Below are positions 31,427 through 58,428 of a stretch of 64,000 nt of DNA, in pieces. Within the stretch, counting starts at the first letter, position 1, and every line of letters starts with the position of its first letter. The notes below the pieces were generated by a model, which saw only the letters and a program-made list of their open reading frames with translations, had not been told where the DNA came from and made no database searches. Both the position numbers and the translations under genes were made by a program. Source of the DNA: Candidatus Uhrbacteria bacterium CG10_big_fil_rev_8_21_14_0_10_48_16 (GTDB lineage: Bacteria; Patescibacteriota; Patescibacteriia; UBA9934; GWF2-40-263); contig PFEU01000008.1 in the NCBI GenBank assembly GCA_002793515.1, positions 6,824-70,823 on the forward strand. The letters run 5' to 3'.

Positions 31427-31464
31427 GGACCAAATTCAAACGGAAACAATGATTTAGCCAAAAC

Positions 31465-39519: not shown

Positions 39520-40335
39520 ATGGCTGAATACGTGATCAAACCCAAACGCCCCATCGGTCTTCATCTCAAAGAAATATGGCGATTTCGTGAGTTATTCTTA
39601 GCACTCACCGTCCGAGACATGAAGGTTCGTTATAAGCAAACGGCCATTGGCGTCCTCTGGGCTGTATTTCAACCGTTCATTCTCATGGTTGTCTTTACGA
39701 TTTTCTTTGGTCGCATCGCACAAATAAGCACCAATGGTGTTCCCTACCCGATCTTTGTCTATAGTGGCTTGTTGTTCTGGAACTATTTTTCAAATGCCTT
39801 AAGCGCCGCAAGTGGAAGCATGGTCGCCAACCAAGCGATCATTCAGAAAATCTATTTTCCTCGTATCATTTTGCCCACAGCTTCTGTTGTGGTGTTTTTG
39901 TTAGATTTTATTTTTTCATCCATCATCTTTGCTGGCCTCCTGATTTACTATCACGTCACACCAAACATCACCGGCCTCTTATTATTAGTTCCCATGCTAC
40001 TCATTACCACCCTCACGCTTCTTGGCATCGGATTATTTTTTTCTGCTGTGAACGTCAAGTACCGTGATGTCCGCTATGTCCTTCCATTCTTTATTCAACT
40101 CCTTCTTTTTGTGACTCCGGTCATCTACCCAGCTACGATTTTAGGAGAATATAAATGGTTGCTCTACCTCAATCCCATGTCTGGAGTCATTGATGTCTTC
40201 CGAAGTACGTTTTTGTCACTTGGTTCTATTTCATGGCCCCTATTTGGAAGTTCGATTCTTGTAAGCATCATCTTTTTTCTTGTTGGTCTTGCCTACTTCC
40301 AAAAAACAGAACGCTATTTCGCTGATCTTATTTAG
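39520..40335 (+). CDS. wzm: ABC-2 type polysaccharide/O-antigen exporter permease (Wzm/TagG family)
   Basis: 271 aa, 6 TM. N-terminal cytoplasmic helix plus ABC2_membrane features (RDMKVRYKQTAIGVLWAVFQP…). Confidence 0.85.
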   Translation: MAEYVIKPKRPIGLHLKEIWRFRELFLALTVRDMKVRYKQTAIGVLWAVFQPFILMVVFTIFFGRIAQISTNGVPYPIFVYSGLLFWNYFSNALSAASGSMVANQAIIQKIYFPRIILPTASVVVFLLDFIFSSIIFAGLLIYYHVTPNITGLLLLVPMLLITTLTLLGIGLFFSAVNVKYRDVRYVLPFFIQLLLFVTPVIYPATILGEYKWLLYLNPMSGVIDVFRSTFLSLGSISWPLFGSSILVSIIFFLVGLAYFQKTERYFADLI

Positions 40336-40336
40336 T

Positions 40337-41596
40337 ATGGATCCTATCATTCGCGTCGAACATCTCGGAAAAAAATATCGGATCAAACATACGCAAAAAG
40401 GCTATGTTGCTCTGCGTGACGTGGTAGCAAACCTCTTTTCTTGGCGTTACTGGTTTCGTTCATCAAAAAAAGAACAGGAAGATTTTTGGGCTCTCCAAGA
40501 CGTGAACTTTGAAGTCCAAAAGGGCGAAGTCCTTGGAATTATTGGAGCAAACGGTGCTGGAAAATCGACCCTCCTAAAAATCTTGTCGAGCATCACCCCA
40601 CCTACGAACGGGGAAGTTCACATGAATGGACGAGTCATCAGTCTTTTGGAAGTAGGCACAGGGTTCCATCCAGAGTTAACGGGGCGTGAAAATATTTATC
40701 TCAACGGAGCCATCCTCGGAATGACACGCAAAGAAATTGAACAGAAATTCGATGCCATTGTTGCTTTCTCAGGAGTTGAAACGTTTTTAGATACTCCGGT
40801 AAAACGATTTAGTAGCGGAATGCAGGTTCGATTAGCATTTGCGGTTGCGGCACATTTAGAACCAGATATTTTGATCATCGACGAAGTTCTTGCCGTCGGT
40901 GATGCATCGTTTCAAAAAAAGTGTTTAGGAAAAATGGAGGAGGTCACAAAACAAGATGGCCGAACGATTTTATTTGTGAGCCACAACATGGATGCCATTG
41001 CGAAACTCTGCCAACGTTCGTTACTGCTTGATCATGGAAAGGTGATCGCAGACGGGCCAACAGATGACGTCATTGCGCGCTACCTAAACAACCACGAACA
41101 AACGCGAGCAGAGGTCACACTCACCCCTCCAGAGACTCTCGATATTGCCATCCGTTCTATCGCGATTAAGAATGACCGTGGAGCACTCTCAAATCGACTC
41201 GAGACAGGAAAACCCTTTACGATCGAAATTGAATACGAACTCAAAAAAGACGCGCATGAGGTCTATGCAGGGGTTGCGTTTATTGATCTAAAGACACAAA
41301 TTTCTGTCTTGGACACACTTGATATCGATCAAAATAAGGACCACTATCCCTTGCGAAAAAAGGGAATGTATCGTTCACTATTCACGTTTCAAGAAAATCC
41401 GTTTAATCACGGAAGATATAAGCTCTTTGTGCATATCGGATCTTTCCCTGCCACACAAACCACTCTTCATCTATCTGACGGCGATCTCACCATAACCTTC
41501 GTTTCAGGAGAAACCTTTGCGACAGATGTTCTCGATGGCACACGAAACTCAACCATGCTCCTCAACATTCCCAGTGAGATTATAAAAATTGGTTAA
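40337..41596 (+). CDS. wzt: Polysaccharide ABC exporter ATP-binding protein (Wzt/TagH) with a C-terminal carbohydrate-binding (Wzt_C-like) extension
   Basis: Walker A GANGAGKST, ABC signature FSSGMQVRLAFAVA, Walker B ILIIDEVLAVGD. Then a C-terminal extension of about 170 aa (…TLTPPETLDIAIRSIAIKNDRGA…YKLFVHIGSF…TITFVSGETFATDV) predicted to be a beta-sandwich. The ORF-track start at 40280 is TTG; the ATG is at 40337. Confidence 0.85.
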   Translation: MDPIIRVEHLGKKYRIKHTQKGYVALRDVVANLFSWRYWFRSSKKEQEDFWALQDVNFEVQKGEVLGIIGANGAGKSTLLKILSSITPPTNGEVHMNGRVISLLEVGTGFHPELTGRENIYLNGAILGMTRKEIEQKFDAIVAFSGVETFLDTPVKRFSSGMQVRLAFAVAAHLEPDILIIDEVLAVGDASFQKKCLGKMEEVTKQDGRTILFVSHNMDAIAKLCQRSLLLDHGKVIADGPTDDVIARYLNNHEQTRAEVTLTPPETLDIAIRSIAIKNDRGALSNRLETGKPFTIEIEYELKKDAHEVYAGVAFIDLKTQISVLDTLDIDQNKDHYPLRKKGMYRSLFTFQENPFNHGRYKLFVHIGSFPATQTTLHLSDGDLTITFVSGETFATDVLDGTRNSTMLLNIPSEIIKIG

Positions 41597-42666: not shown

Positions 42667-43725
42667 ATGCCTCACACACCCATTAAAATATTTGGAAAAA
42701 CGATTGGAGAAGGATATCCAACCTTTTTTATTGCAGAAATAGGATTGAACCACAATGGTTCCATGGACATCGCAAAACAGCTCATAGACGTAGCGGTCAA
42801 CGCCGGATGTGACGCCGTGAAGTTTCAAAAACGAGACATTGAGAGCTTGTCTGTTCGTTCTTTTCTTGATGCTCCTGACACGCGATTCCCTGAGTTTGGC
42901 TCCACCTATCGAGAGGTTCGTGAATTTGTTGAGTTCTCAGAAGAAGAGTTCACCGAACTAAAAAGGTATGCCCAAGAAAAAGAGATTCCATTTTTCGTCA
43001 CCCCTTTTGACATTCCCTCCGCGCAAATGCTCGCACGCATCGGGGTCGACGCCTATAAAAGTGCAAGTCATAATCTGACGCACATTCCTTTGTTGAAGCA
43101 TCTCATCGCCCAACAAAAGCCCATGATTGTTTCCACAGGAATGGCCATGCTTGAAGAGCTAGATCTTGCCGTGAATCTCCTTAAAGAATCCAACATCCCA
43201 TTTGTTTTACTCCATTGCGTCTCTTCCTACCCTACCGCACCTGAACTCATCAATCTCAAAACCATCGACTTTTTGCGAGAGCGCTACCAGGTTCCTGTTG
43301 GCTACTCGGGTCATGAAATGTTGGAAACCGAAAGCCTCCCAACCCTTTCAGCTGTCGCACGAGGTGCCTGTGTCGTAGAGCGTCACATCACTCTTGATCA
43401 CCACATGGTTGGGTTCGATCACAAAATTTCATTAACCCCCAATGAACTCCAGAAACTCATGGGGCAAATTCGTTCGATCGACAAAATGATGGGAACAGGC
43501 TTAAAAACGTTGTTACCGGAAGAACGAATCAAACGCGATCAACAACGTGTTTCCCTTGTTTCCTCTCGCAAAATCTCCGCAGGAGAAATCATCCAACCTG
43601 ATATGGTCTGTTTCAAAGGTCCTGGAACCGGTTTTGCCTGTTATGACCTGGATCAGATTGTGGGGAAATCAGCTATCACAGATATCGACGAAGACACCCT
43701 ATTCCAGGCTGAAATGTTTAACTGA
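42667..43725 (+). CDS. neuB: Nonulosonic acid (sialic-acid-like) synthase, NeuB/PseI/LegI family
   Basis: IGEGYPTFFIAEIGLNHNGSMDIAKQLIDVAVNAGCDAVKFQKR, a TIM-barrel NeuB signature, plus a C-terminal SAF domain (…GPGTGFACYDLDQIVGKSAITDIDEDTLFQAEMF). Confidence 0.9.
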   Translation: MPHTPIKIFGKTIGEGYPTFFIAEIGLNHNGSMDIAKQLIDVAVNAGCDAVKFQKRDIESLSVRSFLDAPDTRFPEFGSTYREVREFVEFSEEEFTELKRYAQEKEIPFFVTPFDIPSAQMLARIGVDAYKSASHNLTHIPLLKHLIAQQKPMIVSTGMAMLEELDLAVNLLKESNIPFVLLHCVSSYPTAPELINLKTIDFLRERYQVPVGYSGHEMLETESLPTLSAVARGACVVERHITLDHHMVGFDHKISLTPNELQKLMGQIRSIDKMMGTGLKTLLPEERIKRDQQRVSLVSSRKISAGEIIQPDMVCFKGPGTGFACYDLDQIVGKSAITDIDEDTLFQAEMFN

Positions 43726-43734
43726 ATTACAGGT

Positions 43735-44487
43735 ATGAATGTCACAAAAAGGCAATTTAGCCCGGGAGTCGTTGAAAAGGTAGATGCAATCCGCCAAGAG
43801 ATGGTATCGCGATATGAAATGCCCCTTGAGCGCACTACACACGTACACCTGCAGTGCGAGAAAATTTTATCAACACAACAGAAACCAGGTGTCGTCGTGC
43901 AATGCGGAGTATGGAAAGGAGCGAGCCTTTTTGCTGCCGCCCTCTTCTGTCAGAATGAAAAAATTCAAAAGCAGATATTCGGATTTGATACATTCACAGG
44001 ATTTCCCAATAAACAGATTGACCCGCACGACCACCCCAGCTATTTCAAGACTCTTTTGGACAGCAACCTTATAACCAAAGAACACTATGAAAAAGCTGCA
44101 ATCCGGACCAAGAACTTCACTGACCTTGCGCATCTTACCAATGAGCATTTTTTAGATATCGGAGAAGTTTTTGATCGAGTCGCAGAATTTGAAAACATCA
44201 AACTTATTAAGGGTACGTTTGCAGAAACCCTGCCACATTTCCAGGAACCAATCGCTGTTCTCTATATTGACTGCGATATCTACCAAGGATATAAGGAAAT
44301 TTTGAATAATCTCTATGACCTGGTGGTCGATGAAGGAGCGATAGTTTTTGATGAATATTACTCACTGAAATATCCGGGCGCCCGTGCAGCGGTGAATGAT
44401 TTTTTTCAAGACAAAAAAGGTCATTTTGAGGTATACACCACCGACGATCGTTTTGAGCGCTGGTGCTTTATAAAGAGCAGTAAATAA
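43735..44487 (+). CDS. TylF/MycF-family sugar O-methyltransferase
   Basis: GVVVQCGVWKGASLFAAALF…LYIDCDIYQGYKEILNNLYDLVVDEGAIVFDEY is the macrocin-O-methyltransferase family pattern. Confidence 0.7.
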   Translation: MNVTKRQFSPGVVEKVDAIRQEMVSRYEMPLERTTHVHLQCEKILSTQQKPGVVVQCGVWKGASLFAAALFCQNEKIQKQIFGFDTFTGFPNKQIDPHDHPSYFKTLLDSNLITKEHYEKAAIRTKNFTDLAHLTNEHFLDIGEVFDRVAEFENIKLIKGTFAETLPHFQEPIAVLYIDCDIYQGYKEILNNLYDLVVDEGAIVFDEYYSLKYPGARAAVNDFFQDKKGHFEVYTTDDRFERWCFIKSSK

Positions 44488-44529
44488 AACGTAATGGAAA
44501 CCCAGCTTGTCATTAACATCGGATAATAT

Positions 44530-45252
44530 ATGAACACGTCAGATTCGGGTCCCCGCATTTTAGCGATTACGCTCGCACGTGGTGGAAGTAAAAGTGTGCC
44601 AAGAAAAAATATTCGCCCGCTTCTTGGGAAACCGATGATTGCGTATACCATCGAAGAAGCGCTGAAGTCGAAATTCATCACACACTACGTCGTCTCAACA
44701 GAAGATAAAGAGATTGCAGACGTAGCAAAAACATACGGAGCGGATGTTCCTTTTTTGCGTCCAGAGGAACTCGCCACAGACACAAGTGCGTCAAAACCCT
44801 GCTTGCAACATGCAACAGCCTATATGGAAGATCAATTGGGTCGCCCCTTTGATTACGTTGTGGAACTCATGGCAACGAACCCACTAAAAACCGTAGAAGA
44901 TATTGACACCGCATTAGAAAAGTTAATCTCAACAGGAGCTGACTCTGTCATTGGTGTCATTCAAATTCACGATCAGCATCCATTACGTGTGAAAAAGATC
45001 GTCGATGACAAACTTGTCGACTTTTGTTTACCAGAACCCAATGAGGCGCGACGGCAAGATCTACAACCTGATGCATTTTTGCGAAATGGTTCTATCTACG
45101 CGATGAAACGTGATGTGCTCATGATTCAAGATCGACGATATGGAACAGAAAACTCGCGCCCGTATATTTTCAGTCCTGAACGCTCGGTCAATGTGGATTC
45201 ATTAGAAGACTGGTATCTTGCAGAGATGCGCCTAAAAAATCGGCAATCGTAA
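44530..45252 (+). CDS. neuA: CMP-nonulosonic acid synthetase (acylneuraminate cytidylyltransferase family, NeuA/PseF/LegF-like)
   Basis: ILAITLARGGSKSVPRKNIRPLLGKPMIAYTIEEALKS is the CTP_transf_3 N-terminal signature. Confidence 0.85.
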   Translation: MNTSDSGPRILAITLARGGSKSVPRKNIRPLLGKPMIAYTIEEALKSKFITHYVVSTEDKEIADVAKTYGADVPFLRPEELATDTSASKPCLQHATAYMEDQLGRPFDYVVELMATNPLKTVEDIDTALEKLISTGADSVIGVIQIHDQHPLRVKKIVDDKLVDFCLPEPNEARRQDLQPDAFLRNGSIYAMKRDVLMIQDRRYGTENSRPYIFSPERSVNVDSLEDWYLAEMRLKNRQS

Positions 45253-45257
45253 CCTCT

Positions 45258-46199
45258 ATGAACATCCTTTGTCTCACACCCATTAAGCACCTTTCGGGGG
45301 TGTTTGAACTCCTTTCTTCATACGGATCTGTTGACTACCAACCGGAATTCACGAAGGAACAGCTGATGGACTACCTGAAAGCGCATCAGGATGTTGATGC
45401 GCTCTTTGTAAATCCAAATAAGCAAAACTATAAACTTGACGCAGAAATTCTTGCTGGAAGTTCCGTCACATTGATCAATACCGCGTCAACTGGACTCAAC
45501 CATATTGATGTTGCTTGGTGTAAAAGACAAAACATTAACATCCTTTCGTTAACCGAAGACCACGAGCTCATCAAACGTCTTCCTTCTACATCAGAACTTG
45601 CCTTCGGTTTAATGCTTTCACTCCTTCGTCATATTCCCTCTTCCTTTGACGCGGTGAAGCGTGGCGCATGGGACTACGAACCCTTTATCGGTCATCAAAT
45701 TGAAGGTCTTACCGCCGGAATCGTTGGTTATGGACGCCTCGGAACATTCATGGCAAAGTACTGTCACGCGTTTGGGATGCGGGTCCTCGTCACAGATCCG
45801 TACAATCCTGTGTACGGATTCGATCGAGTCTCCCTAGAGGAACTCGCGCAAGAATCTGATGTCATCTCCTTACATGTTCACGTCACAGATGAAACCAGAC
45901 ACATGATCAACGCCTCCTTTATTTCAGCCACACAGAAAAGTCCGTATCTGATTAATACGTCACGAGGAGAAATTGTCGATGAACAAGCCGTGCTTGAGGG
46001 GTTGCAATCAGGAAAACTCCGAGGCTACGGAACGGATGTGATCGAAGACGAATTTGGAAATCGTGCGGAAAGTCCTATTATCCAAGCGGCACATTCTGAT
46101 CTGAATGTGCTCATCACCCCCCATACCGGTGGAATGACCTGGGAAGGTCAACAACGCGCCTACACATGGGCCGTCGAAAAGTTTAATCCTCTTTCTTGA
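45258..46199 (+). CDS. D-isomer-specific 2-hydroxyacid dehydrogenase family NAD-binding oxidoreductase
   Basis: GIVGYGRLGTFMAKYCHAFGMRVLVTDPY Rossmann motif, and the catalytic region …NTSRGEIVDEQAVLEGLQSGKLRGYGTDV…HTGG. Confidence 0.8.
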   Translation: MNILCLTPIKHLSGVFELLSSYGSVDYQPEFTKEQLMDYLKAHQDVDALFVNPNKQNYKLDAEILAGSSVTLINTASTGLNHIDVAWCKRQNINILSLTEDHELIKRLPSTSELAFGLMLSLLRHIPSSFDAVKRGAWDYEPFIGHQIEGLTAGIVGYGRLGTFMAKYCHAFGMRVLVTDPYNPVYGFDRVSLEELAQESDVISLHVHVTDETRHMINASFISATQKSPYLINTSRGEIVDEQAVLEGLQSGKLRGYGTDVIEDEFGNRAESPIIQAAHSDLNVLITPHTGGMTWEGQQRAYTWAVEKFNPLS

Positions 46200-46208
46200 G
46201 TCATTCGT

Positions 46209-46853
46209 ATGAGTAAGCTTTCCGTGATTATTCGATGTCGAGATGAAGAACGCTGGATTGGGCACGCCATCCAATCGGTATTAGATTTTGTTGACGATCC
46301 AGAAATTTTAGTCATCAACAACAAGTCAAAAGATGATTCGCTGTTGATCGTTCGACAATTCGCAGGATTCGATACGGTCCGCGTCTTAGACATTGATGAT
46401 TATTCCCCTGGAAAGGCTCTTAACTTGGGCGTCCAAGAAGCAACGAGTGACCTCATTCTCGTTCTCTCAGCACATTGTGTCTTGAAAAAATTCGATCTCC
46501 CAAACATCGCGAAAGCCCTCTCTACACACAAAGCAGTTTTTGGAAAACAACATCCAATCTACCAAGGACGAAAGATCACTCCACGATATCTCTGGGCAAA
46601 CTTTCATGACAGAGAAGAAGAGAATGCGTATTCAAAACTCGAGGACCGACTCTTCTTACATAATGGGATGTGTGTGTACCGGCGCGACATCCTTCTCGAA
46701 CATCCTTTTGACGAACAGCTTGCCGGAAAAGAAGATCGCTACTGGGCGCGCGATATCGTAAAAGCGGGATATACCTATCTCTACAGCCCATCCCTCATGG
46801 AATGTGATCACCATTGGACCACAGACGGAAATACGTGGAAAGGAATAGGGTAA
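46209..46853 (+). CDS. Glycosyltransferase family 2-like (short, 214 aa)
   Basis: LSVIIRCRDEERWIGHAIQSVLDFV…ILVINNKSKDDSLLIVRQF matches the GT-A N-terminal nucleotide-binding pattern. The DxD equivalent is LDIDDYSPG. Confidence 0.6.
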   Translation: MSKLSVIIRCRDEERWIGHAIQSVLDFVDDPEILVINNKSKDDSLLIVRQFAGFDTVRVLDIDDYSPGKALNLGVQEATSDLILVLSAHCVLKKFDLPNIAKALSTHKAVFGKQHPIYQGRKITPRYLWANFHDREEENAYSKLEDRLFLHNGMCVYRRDILLEHPFDEQLAGKEDRYWARDIVKAGYTYLYSPSLMECDHHWTTDGNTWKGIG

Positions 46854-46858
46854 TTTCT

Positions 46859-47698
46859 ATGCGCGACGATATTTGTGTATTGCTGACTTCAGCAATCGAA
46901 GTCAAAAATAAACATCTCGTGAAGCGCCATGACACCGCGACACGTCTTGAGGATTACAAACGCGCCCTACGTAGCTGGCTCACAAAACAAACGCACGTTC
47001 AACACATCGTCTTTGTCGATAACTCTGGATATCCTCTGGATACACTCAAGCACATCGCTGAGACAGAAAACGTTCATGGAAAACACGTAGAATTCCTTTC
47101 CTTCCACTATGACACCACCGGTGATAGCGATATTAGCTTAGGCGAAATCGCTATTTTGGATTATGCCCTCAATCACTCACAAACTCTGAAGAACACATCC
47201 TATTTTATCAAGTGTACGGGAAGAGTATTTGTTGAGAATATCGATCATATTGTCCAAGATCTCCCTGAAACATTTCATGCCGTCGCTCGGTTTTCTGAAA
47301 ACCTAAGTTACATTGATAGCGTGATCATGATTTTCGAGACGCACATGTACCGCGAAGACATGCACCCTCTGATTGCACAAACCATGAAACAGCCAAATGG
47401 AAAAACAGATTTTGAACGCGCCTACGCCAAAGTCCTTCATGAACTCTTAGCGAAAGACTACCAATGGTTTCCGTTCAGTCACGAACCTATTTTCTCAGGA
47501 ATGTCTGGAACAAAAAATCAGTCGTATAGAAAAAAATACGGTCGATTCCAATCTCTCTGGTACTCCGTCATCTCACATATGTTTTACAAACGTTATAGAA
47601 CAAGCTGGGGAAAAAGCTCAGGTCGCGAACATTTGCTCGTCCGTTGGAACATTCAGCCTGAACGAGGAACTTGCTCATCGAATAAAGATTCTCTCTAA
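46859..47698 (+). CDS. Hypothetical protein (possible uncharacterised glycosyltransferase-like)
   Basis: 279 aa from the ATG at 46859; the ORF-track start at 46814 is TTG. Has …HIVFVDNSGYPLD… but no motif I can assign confidently. Confidence 0.45.
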   Translation: MRDDICVLLTSAIEVKNKHLVKRHDTATRLEDYKRALRSWLTKQTHVQHIVFVDNSGYPLDTLKHIAETENVHGKHVEFLSFHYDTTGDSDISLGEIAILDYALNHSQTLKNTSYFIKCTGRVFVENIDHIVQDLPETFHAVARFSENLSYIDSVIMIFETHMYREDMHPLIAQTMKQPNGKTDFERAYAKVLHELLAKDYQWFPFSHEPIFSGMSGTKNQSYRKKYGRFQSLWYSVISHMFYKRYRTSWGKSSGREHLLVRWNIQPERGTCSSNKDSL

Positions 47699-47706
47699 CC
47701 ACCCCT

Positions 47707-48708
47707 ATGTCAGAACACTCAAAAAAACGTGCACTCATTACCGGAATTACCGGACAAGATGGAAGCTATCTTGCTGAATTTTTATTGGAACAGGGATATG
47801 AAGTGCATGGCATCATGCGCCGTTCCTCCACCTTTAACACCTGGCGCATCGAACATCTCTACGGGAGTGAGGACTTCTCTCATCCAAAAAATGACTTCCA
47901 TCTCCATTACGGAGATCTGACCGATGCCATGAGCATTGCTGCCATCATCAAGCAGGTTCAGCCAGATGAAATCTATAATCTTGCTGCCATGAGCCATGTG
48001 CGTGTGTCATTCGATGTTCCAAAATTTACCCTTGAAACAAATACGCTTGGAGCCCTAAACATTTTGGAATACATCCGTCACCACGCACCACACATCAAGT
48101 ATTATCAAGCTTCAAGTTCCGAAATGTTTGGAGCGACAACGGATGCTCCTCCCTTTAATGAGCATACGCGATTCATGCCACAGAGCCCGTACGGCATTTC
48201 AAAACTAGCCTCGTTTCATCTCACAAGACATTACCGAAACAGCTATGGTCTCTTTGCAGTAAATGGAATTCTCTTCAATCACGAAAGTCCTCGCCGTGGA
48301 GAAACGTTTGTGACTCGCAAAATTACTCGTGCCGTTGCCTCCATTCTTGCAGGAGAAATGGATACCCTCTACATGGGGAATCTTGATGCCGTCCGAGACT
48401 GGGGACATTCAAAAGATTATGTCCGAGCGATTCACCTGATGCTCCAACAAGAGGCTCCTGATGAATATGTCGTCGCAACCGGAGAAGCTCACTCCATCAA
48501 AGAAGCTCTGCAATATTGTTTTGAGGAGGCGGGTCTTGATTGGACACAGTATGTAAAGATTGATCCAAAGTACTTCCGCCCAAGCGAAGTCCCCTATCTC
48601 CAAGGAGACTCACGCAAGATTCGAGCGATTGGGTGGGAACCGGAATACAACTGGAAAACACTTCTTAAAGAAATGCTCGAGGAAGATATTAGACGTTCAC
48701 AAAAATAG
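47707..48708 (+). CDS. gmd: GDP-mannose 4,6-dehydratase
   Basis: KRALITGITGQDGSYLAEFLLEQGYEVHGIMRRSSTFNTWRIEHLY…, YxxxK (YGISKLAS), and the full Gmd architecture. Confidence 0.95.
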   Translation: MSEHSKKRALITGITGQDGSYLAEFLLEQGYEVHGIMRRSSTFNTWRIEHLYGSEDFSHPKNDFHLHYGDLTDAMSIAAIIKQVQPDEIYNLAAMSHVRVSFDVPKFTLETNTLGALNILEYIRHHAPHIKYYQASSSEMFGATTDAPPFNEHTRFMPQSPYGISKLASFHLTRHYRNSYGLFAVNGILFNHESPRRGETFVTRKITRAVASILAGEMDTLYMGNLDAVRDWGHSKDYVRAIHLMLQQEAPDEYVVATGEAHSIKEALQYCFEEAGLDWTQYVKIDPKYFRPSEVPYLQGDSRKIRAIGWEPEYNWKTLLKEMLEEDIRRSQK

Positions 48709-48711
48709 TGT

Positions 48712-49098
48712 ATGAAATCTATTGAAAAAGACGGAGTCCTCATCGCGATTCACTTTGACGGAACATTTACCGAAGGTACCCAACCGCAAACAGACGAAGG
48801 ATTTCCCCTCCAGGTTCTTTCCTTGAAGCACCCAAAGGGAAAAATTCTTTTGGCGCATGCTCACACCCCACGTGATCGAACCACACACGAACTCATGGAA
48901 TGTCTCGTCGTGTTATCTGGGCGCATCCTTGCCAACATTTTTCATGAAAACGAACTCTTTGAATCAATCGAGATGGGACCTAAGGAAGCACTGATGCTTG
49001 TCCGCGGTGGAGTCGGGTATGAAATACTAGAAGACGCGGAAATGATGGAGTTTAAAAATGGCCCCTACCTGGAAGACAAATCGCTCATCAACGCATAA
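48712..49098 (+). CDS. WxcM/FdtA-like cupin (putative NDP-4-keto-6-deoxyhexose 3,4-ketoisomerase or epimerase)
   Basis: 128 aa. LAHAHTPRDRTTHELMECLVVLSGRI fits the FdtA-type cupin HxH…E…CL.G pattern. Gene position is immediately 3' of gmd. Confidence 0.5.
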   Translation: MKSIEKDGVLIAIHFDGTFTEGTQPQTDEGFPLQVLSLKHPKGKILLAHAHTPRDRTTHELMECLVVLSGRILANIFHENELFESIEMGPKEALMLVRGGVGYEILEDAEMMEFKNGPYLEDKSLINA

Positions 49099-49099
49099 T

Positions 49100-49675
49100 A
49101 TGACCGATGAATCTTCTCCCTCAACGCAACCGGTTCAACTGCATCTAGGATGTGGAAAACGTTTCATTCCAGGCTTCGTACATATCGATCTTGCCGTTTT
49201 TGAACACATTGATTACACCCACCGGATCGATCAACTCCCCATGATCGAAACCCAGTCTGTGGACCTGATCTATGCCTGTCACGCATTCGAATATTTCGAC
49301 CGAGTGGAAGCTGTCACCGTTCTTCAAGAATGGGGACGTGTCCTTAAGCCAGGAGGGATCCTGCGATTAGCTGTTCCAGACTTTGCCTCGCTCATAGAGG
49401 TCTATCAGACCTACGGAGAACTTGGGCGAGTTATCGGTCCCCTCTTTGGAAGATGGCCCATTCCAGGAACAACAGAGACGGTCTACCACAAAACGGTTTA
49501 TGATTTTCATGACCTTCAAACCCTTCTCACCACAAATGGATTCGAACAGGTTCAACGCTATGACGCCCGCAAGACCTCGCATGCGCAGTATGATGACTAT
49601 GCGCAAGCCTATGTTCCCCACATGGATCAAAACGGCATATTAGTCAGCTTGAATGTGGAAGCACAGAAAATATAA
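49100..49675 (+). CDS. Class I SAM-dependent methyltransferase
   Basis: LHLGCGKRFIPGFVHIDL…LKPGGILRLAVPDF. Start chosen at the ATG at 49100, 1 nt after the upstream stop; the ORF-track start at 49058 overlaps the upstream gene. Confidence 0.65.
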   Translation: MTDESSPSTQPVQLHLGCGKRFIPGFVHIDLAVFEHIDYTHRIDQLPMIETQSVDLIYACHAFEYFDRVEAVTVLQEWGRVLKPGGILRLAVPDFASLIEVYQTYGELGRVIGPLFGRWPIPGTTETVYHKTVYDFHDLQTLLTTNGFEQVQRYDARKTSHAQYDDYAQAYVPHMDQNGILVSLNVEAQKI

Positions 49676-49688
49676 GATCGACATCTCT

Positions 49689-50453
49689 ATGGAACGAACA
49701 GAAAAAAAGACCGTTGAAGAGGTTGTGTCTCATGGAAACATCGACGCACAATACGTCCTAGATCATCCCGAGATGTTCCATGAGAAATCCATCCGCACAG
49801 CAAAGCAACACGCACAGCGCTATCAATTTGCAAAACGCTTTGTCAAAGACAAACACGTGTTAGACATCGCTTGTGGAACAGGTTATGGATCTCGGATTCT
49901 TGATGTGCACTCCTACGCAAGCTATATCGGAGTTGATATCGATCCAGATTCGATCGAACTCGCAAAAGAACGTTACGCGCCAAACAATCCGCGCGCCGTT
50001 TTTTTTACGGATGATGCAACCTCTTTACGGCACACGCCCATTCCTTCTGAATCCATAGACGTGGCTATTTCTTTTGAAACCATTGAGCACACTCCCTTCT
50101 ACAGAGATTTTTTAAAACACATGCATGATAAACTGAAGAAGGATGGACTGTTTATCGTCTCTACCCCGAATCGAGATGTTACCCATCCTGGAACAGATTT
50201 TTCTCACAAACCCACCTGGGACTTTCATACCCAAGAATGGGTCCTTGAAGAATTTTTAGCGTTGTTGGATGAAGAAAAATTCTCTCCCGTGCAGATCTAT
50301 GCGCAATCGTTCCGTGCCCACAAACTGTTCGGCTTCAACATTCCAGGTCTTGGAAGAATCCTCAGACATCTTTCTCTAACCGTTGTCCCATGGAACCTCT
50401 TTCGGTTTTTCGGGAAAGCAAATTTTTATATTCTGGTATGCAAAAAGAAGTAA
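49689..50453 (+). CDS. Class I SAM-dependent methyltransferase
   Basis: VLDIACGTGYGSRILD…AISFETIEHT…DGLFIVSTPN. An alternative in-frame ATG lies at 49653. Confidence 0.65.
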   Translation: MERTEKKTVEEVVSHGNIDAQYVLDHPEMFHEKSIRTAKQHAQRYQFAKRFVKDKHVLDIACGTGYGSRILDVHSYASYIGVDIDPDSIELAKERYAPNNPRAVFFTDDATSLRHTPIPSESIDVAISFETIEHTPFYRDFLKHMHDKLKKDGLFIVSTPNRDVTHPGTDFSHKPTWDFHTQEWVLEEFLALLDEEKFSPVQIYAQSFRAHKLFGFNIPGLGRILRHLSLTVVPWNLFRFFGKANFYILVCKKK

Positions 50454-51541
50454 CGCCATTCATTCCACAAACAGCTCCTTCCTACGGACACAAAGAGCGA
50501 GAAGCCATCGATCTGTATTTACAGTCCAATGCCTGGCTCACAGAATTTGAAAAAACCATTGCTTTTGAACAAGAGATCGCGAAACGCGCAACGACGACCT
50601 ACGCCAGCGTCGTCCCCAATGGAACAATTGCCCTTTTTCTGGCATTCACCGCACTCGGAATCAAAAAAGGAGACGAGGTCATCGTTCCAAATCTCACCAT
50701 GATCGCGACCCCAAATGCCGTACAGCTGGCCGGTGGAACACCTGTTTTCGCGGACGTGGATTCAGAGAGTCTTTGTCTCAATCCCGATGAAGTAGCCCGT
50801 CTCATCACTCCACGCACAAAAGCGGTTTGTCACGTATCTCTCGGAGGTCGCGTAGGACGCATGGAATCTCTTATGGAGTTGTGCCGTGAAAAAGGCATTC
50901 CCCTGGTCGAAGATGCCGCTCAAGCATTTGGATCATCCCATCGGGGGAAACCGGTTGGGTCCTTTGGGGACATCGGGATTTATTCTTTCACCCCACACAA
51001 AATCATCACGACCGGCCAAGGTGGAGCCCTTGTCACCAACCGAGAAGATCTCTATCAAGCGATCGAGCGGTTAAAGGACTTTGGGCGATTACAAGGAGGA
51101 GGTGATCACCACGATCATCTTGGTTGGAATTTTAAGTTCACAGATCTTCAGGCGGTCCTGGGTCTGGTACAGCTCGAAAATTTGGATGAACGCATCGACA
51201 AAAAACGAGAAATTTTTGCTCACTATCAATCGCAACTCACAGACGTTCCGGGAGTGACAATGCTTCACACGAATCTCGAGGAAACAACACCCTGGTTTAT
51301 CGAAGTCTTTGTTGAAAAGCCTCTTGCACTTGCATCGTTTTTGAAAGAGCAAGGGATTGGTACTCGTCCCATGTATCCAGCAATCCATACCCAACCTATC
51401 TACGCGCACATCCAAGGCGAATTTCCTGTAAGCACACACGCAGGAGCTCATGGACTCTGGCTTCCCTCCTCTTTGTCCCTGACCCCATCTGAGATCACGC
51501 GCATCTGTAATGCGGTAAAAGAGTTCCTTCGTTTTGTATGA
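50438..51541 (+). CDS. DegT/DnrJ/EryC1/StrS-family PLP-dependent nucleotide-sugar aminotransferase
   Basis: Conserved TPFIPQ…; the internal-aldimine Lys lies in SFTPHKIITTGQGGALV; overall fold-type I layout. Confidence 0.9.
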   Translation: MQKEVTPFIPQTAPSYGHKEREAIDLYLQSNAWLTEFEKTIAFEQEIAKRATTTYASVVPNGTIALFLAFTALGIKKGDEVIVPNLTMIATPNAVQLAGGTPVFADVDSESLCLNPDEVARLITPRTKAVCHVSLGGRVGRMESLMELCREKGIPLVEDAAQAFGSSHRGKPVGSFGDIGIYSFTPHKIITTGQGGALVTNREDLYQAIERLKDFGRLQGGGDHHDHLGWNFKFTDLQAVLGLVQLENLDERIDKKREIFAHYQSQLTDVPGVTMLHTNLEETTPWFIEVFVEKPLALASFLKEQGIGTRPMYPAIHTQPIYAHIQGEFPVSTHAGAHGLWLPSSLSLTPSEITRICNAVKEFLRFV

Positions 51542-53454
51542 CAACCTACTGTGCGATCGCCGAAACCCTTGAGGATCTTCGACAGATTCGAGCATGGGAG
51601 AAAAAGCACCATGCATCCGTTCATGTGATCGCCCTTTCTCTTGAAGTGCTCGCCGAAGACCCAACCGCAGAACACATTTGGAATCTCCTTCCCATGGACG
51701 ACATCCTCTTTGAATCCTACGAGACAACTCAGCGACTCGGAGGTCTTTGGAGCGAATCTGAAAATGATGAAGAGTCCCGCATGTACAAAGAGTCTCTTCG
51801 GTATCATTTAGTAGAAGAATGCTGGTTTCATGCGCACGTAAGTTTTTCCGTCGCATCGGCCCTTATTCCCCTCTTTCACGCCCGTCAGTGGACGCTTCTG
51901 ATTCCTCAGACAGACTCCTATTTCATTGGTCCCTACGCACCAAACTTTGCAACTGCAGGAAAACGAAATGCCATGTTCACATCGACCTGCATTTCTCTCT
52001 TTACCCAAGAGCATATTCCGATTCGTTATCTTGATATCAAAACGTCATGGATACACCTGTCTGCGAAGATCTCCCTCATGATTCAAGGCATCTCAAAAGT
52101 TCTTTTCGATGGGATTGATATTCTTCATGCTCGATGGGTTCGCAGACCAACTCTCCGCCAACAGCTCACACAGGTAAGCGCTTCTCAAACAATACAAATC
52201 CTCTTCTCGGGATGGGGGAAAGATTTCTCCCGCTTTTTTCGATACGATGTGTTTCGAAAACACGCGAAAGACGCATCTATACACATCACAAATCTTATCT
52301 GGAGAGCACAAAAAAATCCCCAGACCCATGAAGATGCATCAACCGGAGATTTTCAAGAAGTGATTTTAAAAGAAGATATTCGACAACATGTCACGTATGG
52401 CTTGCGCTTGTCGTTGTTTCCCCTCTCCGTCTTCTGGAAGCGCTTCTTGTTTCTCAAAAAAACAATTCCTTCTCTCAAAAAATCTATTCAAGTCCTCTCA
52501 CACGATTATCCGGTTCTTCAGAACCCAATCGTGCAAGCAAACTCCCTCCAAATCTGTCTGTTTGGGATGCATTCAATATTTCTAGGCGCATGGACTCTCG
52601 AACACACACGTAAAAAATATCCAACTCTGACAACCTATGTGGGTTCTGACAGTGGCGGAGTTGAGGAACGTTTTGAACTGTTATGGGCAAAACAACAAGG
52701 ATTAACAGCCTTCAGTATTCCTCATGGATTTTTCGCATTTGCTGAACAGCCTTATTGGTATCTCGCGGATCATCTTCTCACGCAGACATCAGCAACCGCA
52801 CAACTTCTTCAAGCCCTTGGACGACCTCGCTCGGAAATCTCAGTGGTAGGTGCATTTCTTCCACAACAAAAACCACACCTCCTCGACAACCGAAAAATTC
52901 GAATCGTCATCGGAACACGTTCTCGTCGAGGACTTTGGTCAAACATGAGCTCTAAACATCATCTCTATCACGAAACCATCCATACCCTCATAGACACATT
53001 ACTGAACGATGAACGATTTGAAATCATCATCAAGTCACATCCAAATGGAGATCTGAGTGAGTACTACGACACGCTTGTTGCACAGAAAAAACATGCACGA
53101 CTCTCGCATGTTTCCAAAGGATGGAAGTCTGATGTTTTTGTGAGTCAAACAGATGTTCTTGTCTGCCTGGGAGAGGCTCCAAGTCTTCTCCTAGATGCCC
53201 TGTATGCACGTGTTCCCATTGTCTTTATTGAAGGAACGATGACTCGCGTGCTACAAAACATGCACTATGATTACCAGCAGGTTGCCCGAGTGGTCTCGAA
53301 TGGAACGGAAGCAGTGAATGCCATTCTTGAGATGACAAAAGACCAGACCTCGTATGAAGAATCTCTTCTTCCTCAAAACACCATGCTCGAGCGGTATGCC
53401 TTAGGAACCCACCCTGAAAAACAACTCATTGAATCCCTCAAACGCTATGTCTAA
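51538..53454 (+). CDS. Hypothetical 638-aa protein; C-terminal domain resembles HP-motif GT-B-like capsule/nonulosonate/Kdo transferases (KpsC/KpsS or sialyltransferase-like). Assignment is tentative.
   Basis: C-terminal region IRIVIGTRSRR…ERFEIIIKSHPNGDLSEYYD…VLVCLGEAPSLLLDALYARVPIVFIEGTM contains a K-x-HP motif in a Rossmann-like context. No TM segments. Sits between the aminotransferase and a GT gene. Confidence 0.45.
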   Translation: MTTYCAIAETLEDLRQIRAWEKKHHASVHVIALSLEVLAEDPTAEHIWNLLPMDDILFESYETTQRLGGLWSESENDEESRMYKESLRYHLVEECWFHAHVSFSVASALIPLFHARQWTLLIPQTDSYFIGPYAPNFATAGKRNAMFTSTCISLFTQEHIPIRYLDIKTSWIHLSAKISLMIQGISKVLFDGIDILHARWVRRPTLRQQLTQVSASQTIQILFSGWGKDFSRFFRYDVFRKHAKDASIHITNLIWRAQKNPQTHEDASTGDFQEVILKEDIRQHVTYGLRLSLFPLSVFWKRFLFLKKTIPSLKKSIQVLSHDYPVLQNPIVQANSLQICLFGMHSIFLGAWTLEHTRKKYPTLTTYVGSDSGGVEERFELLWAKQQGLTAFSIPHGFFAFAEQPYWYLADHLLTQTSATAQLLQALGRPRSEISVVGAFLPQQKPHLLDNRKIRIVIGTRSRRGLWSNMSSKHHLYHETIHTLIDTLLNDERFEIIIKSHPNGDLSEYYDTLVAQKKHARLSHVSKGWKSDVFVSQTDVLVCLGEAPSLLLDALYARVPIVFIEGTMTRVLQNMHYDYQQVARVVSNGTEAVNAILEMTKDQTSYEESLLPQNTMLERYALGTHPEKQLIESLKRYV

Positions 53455-55703: not shown

Positions 55704-56528
55704 ATGTCTATCAGCGTAATCATGTCCGTCTATAATGGCGAACGGTTTCTCCGTGACGCTGTGTTAAGTGTGCTCGATCAAACCTTTCACGATATTGAAT
55801 TGCTTGTCATCGATGATGCTTCAACGGATGGAACACTCCACCTCCTCGAGGAACTCGCCTCACGTGACTCCCGCATCCGCATCCTCACCAACTCGACGAA
55901 CCTGGGACTTACTAAGTCACTCAACCGTGCCCTTATGCACGCTCAAGGAGAGTTTATCGCCCGGCTGGACGCTGACGACATCGCCTTCCCTTCCCGACTC
56001 GAGAAACAACTCGCCTTCCTTGCCTCACATCCTGACATCGACATCGTGGGTACCGCCTACGAGTGGATCGACGAGCACGGCAACGTCATCGGTCGCCCAA
56101 ACGTCATCACCGACCCAGACGACATCCACCGGACGTTCCCACGCACCAACCCGCTCCTTCACAGCTCAGTCCTGATGCGCAGACACCTCCTTGATTCCAC
56201 AGGAGGATACGATGCGTCCTACAAAAAAGCCCAGGACTACGCGCTGTGGTTAAGACTTGCCCCCACCCACCGATTTGCAAATCTCCCTGAGATTCTCACA
56301 CAAAAACGTCTCAGCAAAGACATGCTCTCCTATGCGAGTGAGCGAAGTCAGCTTCGGTTCGCCGTCCGAGCACGCTATGAGGCACTTAGGCGCGGAGACT
56401 ACCCAATGTGGTATTTTATCTACATCTTGAAGCCGTTCATCGCCTCCATCCTTCCACGTGCTGTTGTTCGATGGATTCGGATTCACCTCTTTCATCAACG
56501 TCAGTATGAGCATCCAACCCTTCGATAA
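55704..56528 (+). CDS. Glycosyltransferase family 2
   Basis: MSISVIMSVYNGERFLRDAVLSVLDQTFHDIELLVIDDASTDGT…ARLDADDIAFPSRL is a classic GT-A/DxD signature. Confidence 0.85.
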   Translation: MSISVIMSVYNGERFLRDAVLSVLDQTFHDIELLVIDDASTDGTLHLLEELASRDSRIRILTNSTNLGLTKSLNRALMHAQGEFIARLDADDIAFPSRLEKQLAFLASHPDIDIVGTAYEWIDEHGNVIGRPNVITDPDDIHRTFPRTNPLLHSSVLMRRHLLDSTGGYDASYKKAQDYALWLRLAPTHRFANLPEILTQKRLSKDMLSYASERSQLRFAVRARYEALRRGDYPMWYFIYILKPFIASILPRAVVRWIRIHLFHQRQYEHPTLR

Positions 56529-58428
56529 GTATCTCACACGTGCATTGGGTCTCTTTGTGTTTCTTGCATTTCTCAGTCCCGTTTTTTTCTGGCCAACATT
56601 CTATGCTCCCTTCTCAAGTCTGACGCTGATCAGCTTTTTCTTTTGTGTAGAGATTGCTCTCCCATGCTATCTCCTTCTTTTGTCCCAGAAAAAACATCCC
56701 TTCGATGCATTTCATCACCCCGTCATTCGTGCAATCGCCCTTCTCATGCTTGTCATGATCCTTTCTTCCTTTGTTGGAGTAGACCCATTGAATAGTTTTC
56801 TTGGGACCATTGATCGTCCCGTGAGTGTTCTTGTCTACATCCACGGATTCCTTCTTCTTCTCTATACGCTTGAACTGTTCTCACGCGATGGGCGATGGAA
56901 AACACGGATCTCTCTTCTTATCATAAGCATAGCATCCGTCATCGCCTTGTACACCTTCGGAGAAGGGTGGCTATGGCCCACGTTTGTAACGTTTGAAGGG
57001 CGTACCGCAAGTCTCCTTGGAAGCCCGAATTATCTTGCGAGCTTCCTGATTCTCCCCACATTTTTGTCTATCGCCTATGCGTCAAACGTACACAAAAAAA
57101 TGCGACCCATTTTTTGGATGCTTGCCTTGAGCATGGTGATCGCCATCGTCTTATCAGGGACGCGTGGTGCCCTGCTTGGACTCATCGTAGGAGCTCTTAT
57201 CTTGGTAACCCCCTCTAGCTCCCCCTTAAAAAGGGGGAGGACCGGAGGTCTTGGCACCCGTGTCTCTAAAAGAATGCTCCTGGCGGGTCTGCTGACATTC
57301 CTCGGAGTGTTTCTGGTGTTCAGTGTGACGAATGTAAACTCGCTCATGGAACGCTTCACACAAACAACAGATGCAAATAGTTCTATGCGTCTCGTCTACT
57401 GGAACATGGCCGTTGAAGGCTGGAAGGAACACTCATTTCTTGGAGTCGGACCAGGAAATTTCTATACCATCGCAGACCCAGCGTTTACTCCCGATCTCTA
57501 TCAGCACACACACGCCTGGCCAGATAGCCCTCACAGCACCTTGTTCGAACGCCTCTCAACAACAGGACTTTTTGGACTATTTGCATGGTTCCTATTCCTC
57601 TTTTTCCTCATGCGCGCCCTGTGGCAACATCGTACACAGCCTGCCAACATCGCTCTTCTTGCGGGTATCATCGCGTACCTCGTTCAGGGATTATTCTTCT
57701 TCGACGGGATAAGTGATTTCATTCTGTTTCTCTTCGTCATTGCATGGACCTGTACATCCACCCCCTCAACCACCCATCAGGAACACCGATCTCCCTCTTT
57801 CCTCCTGGGAGGCGCTGGAGGGGTTCTTGCTCTCACAGGAATCTTCTTTCTCATCCTCCCCTTGCGCACAGAAGTTGCTCTGGCAGGAAAACAGCTTCTC
57901 CCTCAACAACAGATCATCATCGACGACCTGCTCATTTCTCAAACCGCTTTTGAACGTGCCACAACCTTGAACACGACACAGGACCCCGCTCACGTTCAGG
58001 AAGCCATAGACCTCTATGTCGAGAGTCTCGATCGTCACCCTCTCCGACAACAAGCCTGGAATGACCTCGCTTGGCTTTACTACATTCAAGCGTTCCTCCA
58101 ACAGACCATCGTGAGTGAAGAAGGAATCCTTTCGGCACAAAGAGCGATCCAACTTGCTCCCGGACGAATAGAAGCCACATCAACCCTTACGCAAATGCTC
58201 TTGCACACAGCTACCATTGCCTCAGAACAACAGCAGTACCCTCTCCTCATTGAGACTTACCTCTCGCTCATTGAACTTCAGCCGACGACGTATTCCTACC
58301 TTGCAAATCTTGCGACAAGTTACGCTCTTAATGGACAGATCGAAGAAGCGATCACAACAGCCAATACCCTAAAGCACCTTGACCCCCAGAGCACAGAATC
58401 CGTAAATGCCTTTTTAGAGAGCTTGTAA
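56506..58428 (+). CDS. Wzy_C (O-antigen ligase/polymerase-like) membrane protein fused to C-terminal TPR repeats
   Basis: About 11 TM helices; Wzy_C core LSGTRGALLGLIVGALILV. The C-terminal 200 aa are helical TPR-like (…WNDLAWLYYIQAF…LANLATSYALNGQIEEAI…). The ORF-track start at 56458 is GTG; the ATG is at 56506. Confidence 0.7.
   Translation: MSIQPFDKYLTRALGLFVFLAFLSPVFFWPTFYAPFSSLTLISFFFCVEIALPCYLLLLSQKKHPFDAFHHPVIRAIALLMLVMILSSFVGVDPLNSFLGTIDRPVSVLVYIHGFLLLLYTLELFSRDGRWKTRISLLIISIASVIALYTFGEGWLWPTFVTFEGRTASLLGSPNYLASFLILPTFLSIAYASNVHKKMRPIFWMLALSMVIAIVLSGTRGALLGLIVGALILVTPSSSPLKRGRTGGLGTRVSKRMLLAGLLTFLGVFLVFSVTNVNSLMERFTQTTDANSSMRLVYWNMAVEGWKEHSFLGVGPGNFYTIADPAFTPDLYQHTHAWPDSPHSTLFERLSTTGLFGLFAWFLFLFFLMRALWQHRTQPANIALLAGIIAYLVQGLFFFDGISDFILFLFVIAWTCTSTPSTTHQEHRSPSFLLGGAGGVLALTGIFFLILPLRTEVALAGKQLLPQQQIIIDDLLISQTAFERATTLNTTQDPAHVQEAIDLYVESLDRHPLRQQAWNDLAWLYYIQAFLQQTIVSEEGILSAQRAIQLAPGRIEATSTLTQMLLHTATIASEQQQYPLLIETYLSLIELQPTTYSYLANLATSYALNGQIEEAITTANTLKHLDPQSTESVNAFLESL

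Follow-up and report, generated by a model that had tools for sequence, protein, structure and literature searches.

What does a small cupin do when its gene lies between those of a GDP-mannose 4,6-dehydratase (Gmd) and a sugar aminotransferase? The question is raised by a cassette of five genes at positions 47707-51541 of a 64,000-nucleotide stretch of contig PFEU01000008.1, which belongs to the patescibacterium Candidatus Uhrbacteria bacterium CG10_big_fil_rev_8_21_14_0_10_48_16. This whole stretch is hereafter called the window, and coordinates refer to it unless another locus is named. GDP-4-keto-6-deoxymannose, the product of Gmd enzymes, is the hub for the synthesis of fucose, rhamnose, colitose, perosamine, and mycosamine. 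To our knowledge, all known tailoring enzymes that act at this hub are short-chain dehydrogenases/reductases (SDRs) or pyridoxal 5'-phosphate (PLP) enzymes, and the known stand-alone cupins work solely on dTDP sugars and GDP-heptoses, apart from the cupin that forms a domain of CapF. Full-text literature searches returned no paper on a cupin acting on GDP-4-keto-6-deoxymannose or on a module composed of Gmd, a cupin, and an aminotransferase. A 2022 review states that an enzyme for 3,4-ketoisomerization at the GDP level is still to be identified and that Gmd and the synthase did not suffice to reconstitute GDP-mycosamine (PMC8944477). The first-pass annotation of this DNA had likewise stated that no GDP-level 3,4-ketoisomerase is firmly assigned in the mycosamine route, a claim upheld by the review and by our literature searches, which found nothing newer.

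We infer that the cassette is the nucleotide-sugar module of a surface-glycan locus of Ca. Uhrbacteria and that its product is a methylated GDP-amino-6-deoxyhexose. The cupin probably acts on the Gmd product, because it forms an invariant, translationally coupled pair with Gmd and because a residue switch at its position 101 correlates with the aminotransferase encoded downstream. As the reaction, our first choice, made tentatively, is C3/C5 epimerization of the 4-keto intermediate. By its gene families, the cassette is a variant of the known perosamine scheme, in which Gmd is followed by the perosamine synthase Per, extended by a cupin related to WbuC and by dedicated methyltransferases. The genes themselves are ordinary; what is unusual is that a cupin step is conserved at so central a hub of sugar-nucleotide metabolism. 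A small cupin whose coupling to Gmd extends over dozens of genomes of candidate phyla, and whose residue switch is in step with the aminotransferase clade, would mark a further reaction at this hub.

Organization of the cassette and its flanking enzymes

Five co-directional open reading frames (ORFs) on the plus strand fill 47707-51541, as judged from the ORF list and its translations. They encode Gmd (47707-48708, 333 residues), the cupin (48712-49098, 128 residues), two class-I S-adenosylmethionine (SAM) methyltransferases designated MT1 (49100-49675, 191 residues) and MT2 (49689-50453, 254 residues), and a PLP-dependent sugar aminotransferase of the DegT family (50438-51541, 367 residues), hereafter DegT. 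The junctions are tight, with 3 nucleotides between gmd and the cupin gene, 1 between the latter and MT1, and 13 between MT1 and MT2, while MT2 and DegT overlap by 16 nucleotides and DegT overlaps by 4 with the next gene, which encodes a 638-residue protein. A site scan found no excess of promoter-like or terminator-like sites across the cassette, and the same gene order was found again in independent genomes. The five-gene block is a single operon and not a chance juxtaposition. With respect to gene limits, the first ATG of MT1 at 49058 would give 205 residues, and the ATG at 49100 is backed by three orthologues and by one Joint Genome Institute (JGI) gene call; the limits of MT2 are those of a JGI gene call; and an alternative start of DegT at 50390 would give 383 residues. 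An antisense ORF at 51089-51856 (255 residues), which lies inside DegT and the gene for the 638-residue protein, is assumed to be spurious. The first-pass annotation had described the same arrangement, and its main elements are confirmed: the 128-residue cupin between the dehydratase and the PLP aminotransferase has an HxH/E motif and is modelled as a beta barrel, the two SAM methyltransferases match PF08241 and PF13847, and the sizes given for the three proteins (128, 192, and 255 residues) are correct to within the stop codon.

The first enzyme of the route can be assigned with most assurance. Gmd matches Pfam family PF16363 with E=1.2e-127 and the NCBIfam equivalog TIGR01472 with 458.8 bits, over the cutoff of 415, and its place in the gene order is conserved. 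This strong family membership indicates that it is a true GDP-mannose 4,6-dehydratase, as had been proposed at first pass, and that it would convert GDP-mannose into GDP-4-keto-6-deoxy-D-mannose.

DegT matches PF01041 (E=8.8e-97), and its Schiff-base lysine can be read in the translation within 'SFTPHKIITTGQGG' ('SFTPHK'). Its best matches among PDB sequences are the entries 3DR7 and 3BN1 of the Caulobacter perosamine synthase (E=1e-59, 204-206 bits), followed by 7b0m (190 bits), the Kdo8N transaminase (176 bits), and QdtB and WbpE (152 bits each), and its best NCBIfam matches are the LegC and PseC models, both under cutoff. A reading of DegT as a ColD-type dehydratase was dropped in view of this lysine and of the low score of ColD (78 bits). 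The cassette can thus be compared with the GDP-perosamine pathway (Gmd and Per/RfbE; Caulobacter crescentus 3DR7, 3BN1, 3DR4), in which Gmd and a DegT enzyme with a Schiff-base lysine are also encoded in one operon, within a polysaccharide locus that has an ATP-binding cassette (ABC) exporter. It differs from that pathway in that genes for a cupin and for two methyltransferases separate gmd from DegT. The margin of DegT over other aminotransferases is modest (206 versus 190, 176, and 152 bits), and both the position and the configuration of the amine in its product are predictions.

Coupling of the cupin to Gmd and to the aminotransferase

Loci that encode this cupin clade were gathered from metagenome look-ups and from a scan of GTDB species genomes with an alignment of eight sequences of the clade as the query, which together gave 39 non-redundant loci. 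Most are from Patescibacteria (Jorgensen-, Wolfe-, Gottesman-, Falkow-, Taylor-, and Saccharibacteria, among others), with a minority from Gammaproteobacteria, Planctomycetales, and Omnitrophota. Gmd is encoded directly 5' of the cupin in 35 of them, and its stop codon frequently overlaps the start codon of the cupin gene. As for the four exceptions, two contigs begin at the cupin gene, one holds only the C-terminus of Gmd at the contig edge, and one has Gmd downstream.

The second tie concerns position 101 in cupin motif 2. When 1.84 billion representative sequences were searched with a profile, 1,142 relatives of the cupin came up, 128 of which were aligned. In 110 of these 128, position 101 is His; it is Val in the window cupin and hydrophobic in the closest relatives, and across the cupin clade linked to DegT it is occupied by V, I, L, F, Y, or W. 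If a close DegT is defined as one that scores at least 300 bits against the window DegT, such an enzyme is encoded 3' of the cupin in 22 of the 28 loci whose cupin lacks the motif-2 His, compared to none of the 11 loci with a His-bearing cupin (Fisher p=7e-6, although the loci share ancestry and such counts therefore overstate their independence). Two more loci with a His-less cupin have a DegT gene that is cut by the contig end. The close DegT orthologues of the His-less cupins score 330-530 bits against the window protein.

Within this framework the gene order varies. DegT follows Gmd and the cupin with nothing between in six loci (L030, L031, L036, L039, L040, and L041), and in others it comes after one or two methyltransferases, the typical order being Gmd, cupin, an FkbM-type methyltransferase (MT21), MT1, DegT, and a glycosyltransferase of family 10 (GT10). 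Ten of the 39 loci have GT10 after DegT, as do the cupin-less loci L015-L018. His-bearing cupins are followed by GT4 (L042 and L043), by GT4 and an RmlD-like reductase (L046), or by a more distant DegT (L050, L051, and L053), and a cupin with Trp at the motif-2 position is followed by GT11 (L047). Several loci with Gmd and the cupin show neither a nearby aminotransferase nor an obvious reductase; part of the locus annotation was made by phmmer with the window proteins, which misses divergent SDRs later picked up by Pfam, and the absence of a reductase is therefore limited to Pfam-confirmed content.

Two further observations were made in these loci. In L002 (6599-7330), and also in L025 and L035, the gene of a 243-residue HD-domain protein separates that of the FkbM-type methyltransferase from DegT. 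A small cupin paired with DegT is encoded on the minus strand in L011 (2931-3332) and L012 (1557-1958), divergently from an operon with Gmd, the cupin, and a glycosyltransferase/MT21 fusion, so that two different small cupins occur in one sugar locus. The ORF in L011, despite a label as a weak FdtA, is a cupin like the C-terminal domain of CapF, and hhalign gave it a probability of 0.65% against the family of the window cupin.

The coupling to Gmd would also suit a cupin that is no enzyme of this route. The cassette might make plain GDP-D-perosamine through Gmd and a Per-type DegT, followed by methylation, with the cupin serving as a partner that binds or stabilizes Gmd, as a sensor of a small ligand, or as the enzyme of an unrelated step. 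We consider this unlikely. It would agree with the closeness of DegT to the Caulobacter enzyme, with the cupin-bearing loci that have no aminotransferase or obvious reductase nearby, and with the overlapping stop and start codons, which are equally suited to a stoichiometric protein partner. Moreover, no function has been demonstrated for WbuC-type cupins, the top-ranked papers on the wbuC gene mentioning it solely in connection with mcr-9/blaCTX-M mobile elements, and characterized perosamine routes require only Gmd and Per (PMC8944477). However, the active-site-like residues H49, H51, E63, E113, and K115 are invariant or nearly so over 128 divergent relatives, and the switch of His101 to a hydrophobic residue correlates with a specific DegT clade, so that it looks like a specialization of substrate or chemistry rather than the mark of a passive partner.

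Epimerization as a candidate reaction

Cupins at this position of a pathway abstract the proton alpha to the 4-keto group and are either C3/C5 epimerases or 3,4-ketoisomerases. Characterized members of GT10 and GT11 use GDP-beta-L-fucose. We lean toward an epimerase because GT10 follows DegT in related loci and GT11 follows one pair of Gmd and cupin (L047), because Gmd and the cupin are paired with an RmlD-like reductase in L046, and because an SDR resembling GDP-L-fucose synthase takes the slot of the cupin in two independent cupin-less modules. In these modules, L019 (2875-6546) and L015 (6001-11618), the divergent SDR is encoded between the dehydratase and DegT. The SDR of L019 matches NF047922 with 165 bits, far under the cutoff of 500, and the best PDB matches of that of L015 are GDP-L-fucose synthases (132 bits). 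These SDRs may be non-orthologous replacements of the cupin.

Precedents for such a reaction have been described. DdahB and MlghB, enzymes of GDP-heptose synthesis, are cupin C3/C5 epimerases that act on GDP-4-keto sugars, and MlghB also uses a mannose substrate (PMC7949155), while the cupin domain of CapF is a Zn-dependent epimerase that works after a dehydratase (PMC5393024). All of these are cupins acting on the product of a 4,6-dehydratase, as predicted here, and the substrates of DdahB and MlghB are likewise GDP-linked.

The scheme that we propose would start with the conversion of GDP-mannose into GDP-4-keto-6-deoxy-D-mannose by Gmd. The cupin would then rework this intermediate by enolization, with epimerization at C3/C5 giving an L-series 4-ketosugar, as RmlC, DdahB/MlghB, and the CapF domain do elsewhere. 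The perosamine-synthase-like DegT would aminate the keto group, MT1 would methylate the amino sugar, probably on nitrogen, and MT2 would add a lineage-specific second methyl group, either to the sugar or to the glycan. The methylated GDP-amino-6-deoxyhexose could be passed to the 638-residue protein, whose gene occupies the slot of GT10 in relatives, and the glycan would be exported by the Wzm/Wzt system of the locus. With an epimerase, the product would be a methylated GDP-4-amino-4,6-dideoxy-L-hexose, and the cassette would provide a route to L-series 4-amino-6-deoxyhexoses.

Several points weigh against epimerization. Neither Pfam, nor a profile search of PDB sequences, nor the hhalign comparison cited above ties the cupin to RmlC or to the CapF cupin. 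Enzymes of the RmlC type have about 180 residues, compared to only 128 in the window cupin, which has no PF00908 match and to which RmlC is a weak structural neighbor (1nyw, Foldseek E 0.13); 3,4-ketoisomerases outrank both RmlC and ChmJ in the same comparison. The SDRs and GT10 enzymes of the relatives could mark an ordinary GDP-fucose branch beside a perosamine branch, and GT10 is missing from the window cassette itself. Since classical perosamine loci do without a cupin, DegT might take the Gmd product directly. Finally, the catalysis, the metal, and the substrate of the cupin are predictions from sequence, as are all steps after Gmd and the methylation itself, which could occur on N, O, or C.

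Family, active-site residues, and fold of the cupin

The cupin carries H49-x-H51, E63, and G70, which constitute cupin motif 1 with a long insert. It has no Pfam match of any kind, even at E≤10, and a PDB sequence search found no relative. The sole family signal is to TIGR04366, the model of the WbuC cupin, with 19.9 bits (E=5.3e-4), under the cutoff of 42 bits. Nearly all of the 1,142 relatives are stand-alone proteins of about 130 residues, and TIGR04366 is matched at E≤1e-3 by 121 of the 128 aligned, the best with E=3.7e-14, while a few match the generic models Cupin_1, Cupin_2, or Cupin_3. H49, G70, E113, and G117 are invariant in the alignment, and Q34, H51 (kept in 125 of 128), E63, G99, K115, and P118 are nearly so. 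Fusion proteins, which join the cupin to a GT2 domain or to a fragment of a CoA-transferase, offered no functional hint.

The cupin is therefore best placed, from these comparisons, in a group of proteins of about 130 residues related to the WbuC cupins, without being a member of the curated family. It shares size and stand-alone architecture with WbuC and differs from it in its score and in the replacement of the motif-2 His by Val, which leaves H49, H51, and E63 of the full WbuC-type metal site. Since WbuC has no demonstrated function, the match names a relative and not an activity. The label "WxcM/FdtA-like", under which the protein had first been described, fails as a family assignment because PF05523, the FdtA family, is matched neither by the cupin (E≤10) nor by any of its 128 relatives (E≤0.01). 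A profile search of 48712-49098 against the FdtA and RmlC families, which the first-pass annotation had put forward as a check, thus gave a match to neither PF05523 nor PF00908. Furthermore, the profile of the cupin family retrieved no FdtA or QdtA chain from PDB sequences at E≤10, nor did it retrieve RmlC or the CapF cupin. L001 encodes a true RmlC homologue separately (TIGR01221, 138 bits).

The ancestral set of residues, Gln34, His49, His51, Glu63, and His101, resembles the Zn sites of cupins of the mannose-6-phosphate isomerase (PMI) type. The cupin could accordingly be pictured as a minimal PMI, akin to the cupin domain of type II enzymes that combine PMI with GDP-mannose pyrophosphorylase (GMP), which would supply GDP-mannose for Gmd. 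One of the 128 relatives matches PF01050 (E=0.005), and Pfam scans of the window glycan locus saw no gene for PMI, phosphomannomutase (PMM), or GMP. However, the other 127 relatives do not match PF01050, a PMI would be expected beside manB/manC rather than tightly coupled to gmd, and the link between the switch at residue 101 and the DegT clade would be left without explanation, all of which makes this role very unlikely.

A structural model gives the only resemblance to FdtA. A word-index homology search had found just two relatives of the cupin, and the AlphaFold2 (AF2) model from the resulting three sequences had a predicted local distance difference test score (pLDDT) of 56.7; it was replaced by a model from the 128-sequence alignment, which is an all-beta barrel with a pLDDT of 96.4. 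In a Foldseek search of the PDB with this model, no match reached E≤1e-3. The 3,4-ketoisomerases QdtA, FdtA, WlaRB, FdtD, and HCAN_0198, all of about 135 residues, rank first, with E of 0.03-0.1 and template modelling (TM) scores of 0.40-0.46, and just behind them come quercetinase, RmlC, ChmJ, and cysteine dioxygenase. The term "FdtA-like" thus survives as a weak likeness of the predicted fold.

These neighbors raise the possibility, which we regard as doubtful, that the cupin is a dedicated GDP-4-keto-6-deoxy-D-mannose 3,4-ketoisomerase. DegT would then act as a 3-aminotransferase and yield a GDP-3-amino-3,6-dideoxymannose of the mycosamine type, to be N-methylated by MT1, MT2, or both. Like the PF05523 enzymes, the window cupin has a single domain, and its gene lies between those for a 4,6-dehydratase and for an aminotransferase, an order that parallels the dTDP-Qui3N and dTDP-Fuc3N operons. 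FdtA uses a His pair and no metal; in the window cupin, the conserved H49-x-H51 pair may be the equivalent, and the DegT-linked clade has lost the motif-2 His, a canonical cupin metal ligand. The gap in the GDP-mycosamine route would also be accounted for, and the likeness of DegT to perosamine synthase is no bar, since GDP-sugar 3- and 4-aminotransferases are inseparable by sequence (PMC8944477). The case against such an isomerase begins with the missing PF05523 match and with weak Foldseek scores, little different from those that quercetinase, RmlC, and cysteine dioxygenase obtain. The substrate would be expected to carry GDP instead of dTDP, and the conserved E63, E113, and K115, together with the full site of three His and one Glu that most relatives keep and that is presumably ancestral, suggest a different, WbuC-type active site. 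In addition, the GT10 and GT11 neighbors and the replacements resembling GDP-L-fucose synthase (Fcl) favor an L-fucose-like product, and the nearest solved relative of DegT is a 4-aminotransferase. The amino-sugar pathway proposed at first pass has therefore fared unevenly: its frame is sustained by synteny, which ties the cupin to Gmd and to the DegT clade and MT1 to DegT, and its ketoisomerase leans on the Foldseek ranking, the HxH pair, the lost metal ligand, and the gene order.

Were the ketoisomerase real, it would be the first dedicated enzyme of its kind on GDP-4-keto-6-deoxy-D-mannose and would fill the missing step of GDP-mycosamine-type pathways. The product of the cassette would then be an N-methylated GDP-3-amino-3,6-dideoxyhexose new to any described glycan, and the enzyme would answer a question in the biosynthesis of mycosamine and the polyenes and be a tool for glyco-engineering. 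Both epimerization, which we continue to favor, and ketoisomerization can be tested in vitro with four small soluble proteins, and either would offer a first chemical handle on the surface glycans of Patescibacteria.

The two methyltransferases

MT1 matches PF08241 with 31.1 bits, over the cutoff of 21.2, and its orthologues in L001, L010, and L013 are 60-69% identical to it. It belongs to a family of proteins of about 185 residues, roughly 60% identical and centred on Patescibacteria, of which a search retrieved over 7,500 clusters. No solved relative came up when PDB sequences were searched with MT1 and with its profile. MT1 is present in 12 of the cupin-bearing loci and adjoins DegT in 11 of these, the window itself having MT2 between the two, and it never occurs without DegT among the cupin-bearing loci. 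The adjacency is also found in the cupin-less L019, and MT1 lies three genes away in L015-L018. MT1 is thus tied to DegT, which fits a role in methylation of the amino sugar and makes it a candidate amino-sugar N-methyltransferase. In its strict association with the aminotransferase, it is comparable to the N,N-dimethyltransferases TylM1 and DesVI, which are class-I SAM enzymes of amino-sugar operons, and it differs from them in forming a separate family.

MT2 matches PF13847 (E=4.6e-19), and also PF13489 and PF08241 with E of about 1e-17 to 1e-19. It is absent from the cassette in all other related loci, so that its presence at this position is lineage-specific, and a relative scoring 150 bits is encoded elsewhere in L001. 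The first-pass annotation had placed both proteins in the size class of sugar N,N-dimethyltransferases. This classification found no counterpart: no PDB entry named as a sugar N-methyltransferase was matched by MT1 or its profile (E≤1) or by MT2 (E≤1e-3), the presence of TylM1 and DesVI in the searched copy being unconfirmed, and MT2 does not recur in related cassettes. C-methyltransferases of the TylC3 type have about 400 residues and an N-terminal Zn domain; such a role was set aside for MT1 and MT2, for which there is no Pfam match of this kind.

The surrounding glycan locus

Pfam and NCBIfam scans place the cassette in a glycan-assembly locus on the plus strand at 33888-59533. It encodes an SDR, several GT4 and GT2 enzymes, six methyltransferases (at 35997, 38795, 41602, 43735, 49100, and 49689), a Wzm/Wzt ABC exporter with a Wzt_C domain, a NeuB-like synthase, a CMP-transferase, a 2-hydroxyacid dehydrogenase, and a protein with Wzy_C and TPR domains. 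The valyl-tRNA synthetase encoded in the window is 100% identical to that of Candidatus Uhrbacteria bacterium CG10_big_fil_rev_8_21_14_0_10_48_16, which makes the host a member of the Patescibacteria, also known as the candidate phyla radiation (CPR). These organisms are not known to have an outer membrane, and the glycan made with this cassette would therefore not be a lipopolysaccharide O-antigen. The exporter, with its carbohydrate-binding Wzt_C domain, lies at 39520-41596 (plus strand), and its combination with methyltransferases is the layout of chain-terminator-controlled export of O-polysaccharides, yet the host should have no outer membrane.

The cassette is flanked by two conserved proteins for which no Pfam, NCBIfam, or PDB relative was found. 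The 638-residue protein (51538-53454, plus strand) has an orthologue of 422 bits at the same position in L001 and is a candidate transferase for the product; because GT10 holds the slot after DegT elsewhere, it may, by analogy, represent a new glycosyltransferase family. Directly 5' of gmd, a 279-residue protein is encoded on the plus strand at 46859-47698, the longest ORF (294 residues) starting at 46814. Its L001 orthologue scores 309 bits, and it corresponds to a JGI gene call in L006.

Further upstream, 42667-46853 (plus strand) encodes a NeuB-like synthase (TIGR03569, 308.8 bits; cutoff 399.65), a TylF-type methyltransferase, a PseF-like CMP-transferase (162.8 bits; cutoff 205.7), a 2-hydroxyacid dehydrogenase, and a small GT2, and the last three are kept together in L001. 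By its encoded families, this segment looks like a nonulosonic or ulosonic-acid branch in a CPR genome. The cassette might conceivably feed the NeuB-like synthase, with the amino-dideoxyhexose being released and condensed with phosphoenolpyruvate (PEP) to an unusual nonulosonic acid of the 7-amino type, comparable to the GDP-linked route to legionaminic acid. We give this idea hardly any credence. The NeuB-like synthase and the CMP-transferase do lie 3-5 kb upstream in the same direction, and LegC and PseC are the best NCBIfam matches of DegT, under cutoff. However, Pfam scans of the glycan locus saw no hydrolase of the NeuC/LegG/PseG kind, and Gmd is a true GDP-mannose dehydratase rather than a LegB-type enzyme. 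Moreover, most related loci have no NeuB nearby and the cassette is followed there by a glycosyltransferase (GT10), which suggests that the GDP sugar serves directly as the donor.

Other features of the window

Membrane proteins with a Wzy_C domain, resembling O-antigen ligases, are encoded at 1992-3260 (minus strand) and at 56458-58428 (plus strand), the second being fused to TPR repeats. At 15962-18262 (plus strand), an island of 62% GC in a window of about 46% GC encodes a 766-residue protein with FG-GAP repeats and MopE-type metal-binding motifs. An ORF of 2,124 residues at 22730-29104 (minus strand) has no Pfam match, and beside it, at 30527-32472 (minus strand), separate proteins with cohesin/TSP3 and dockerin domains are encoded, which probably belong to a surface assembly.

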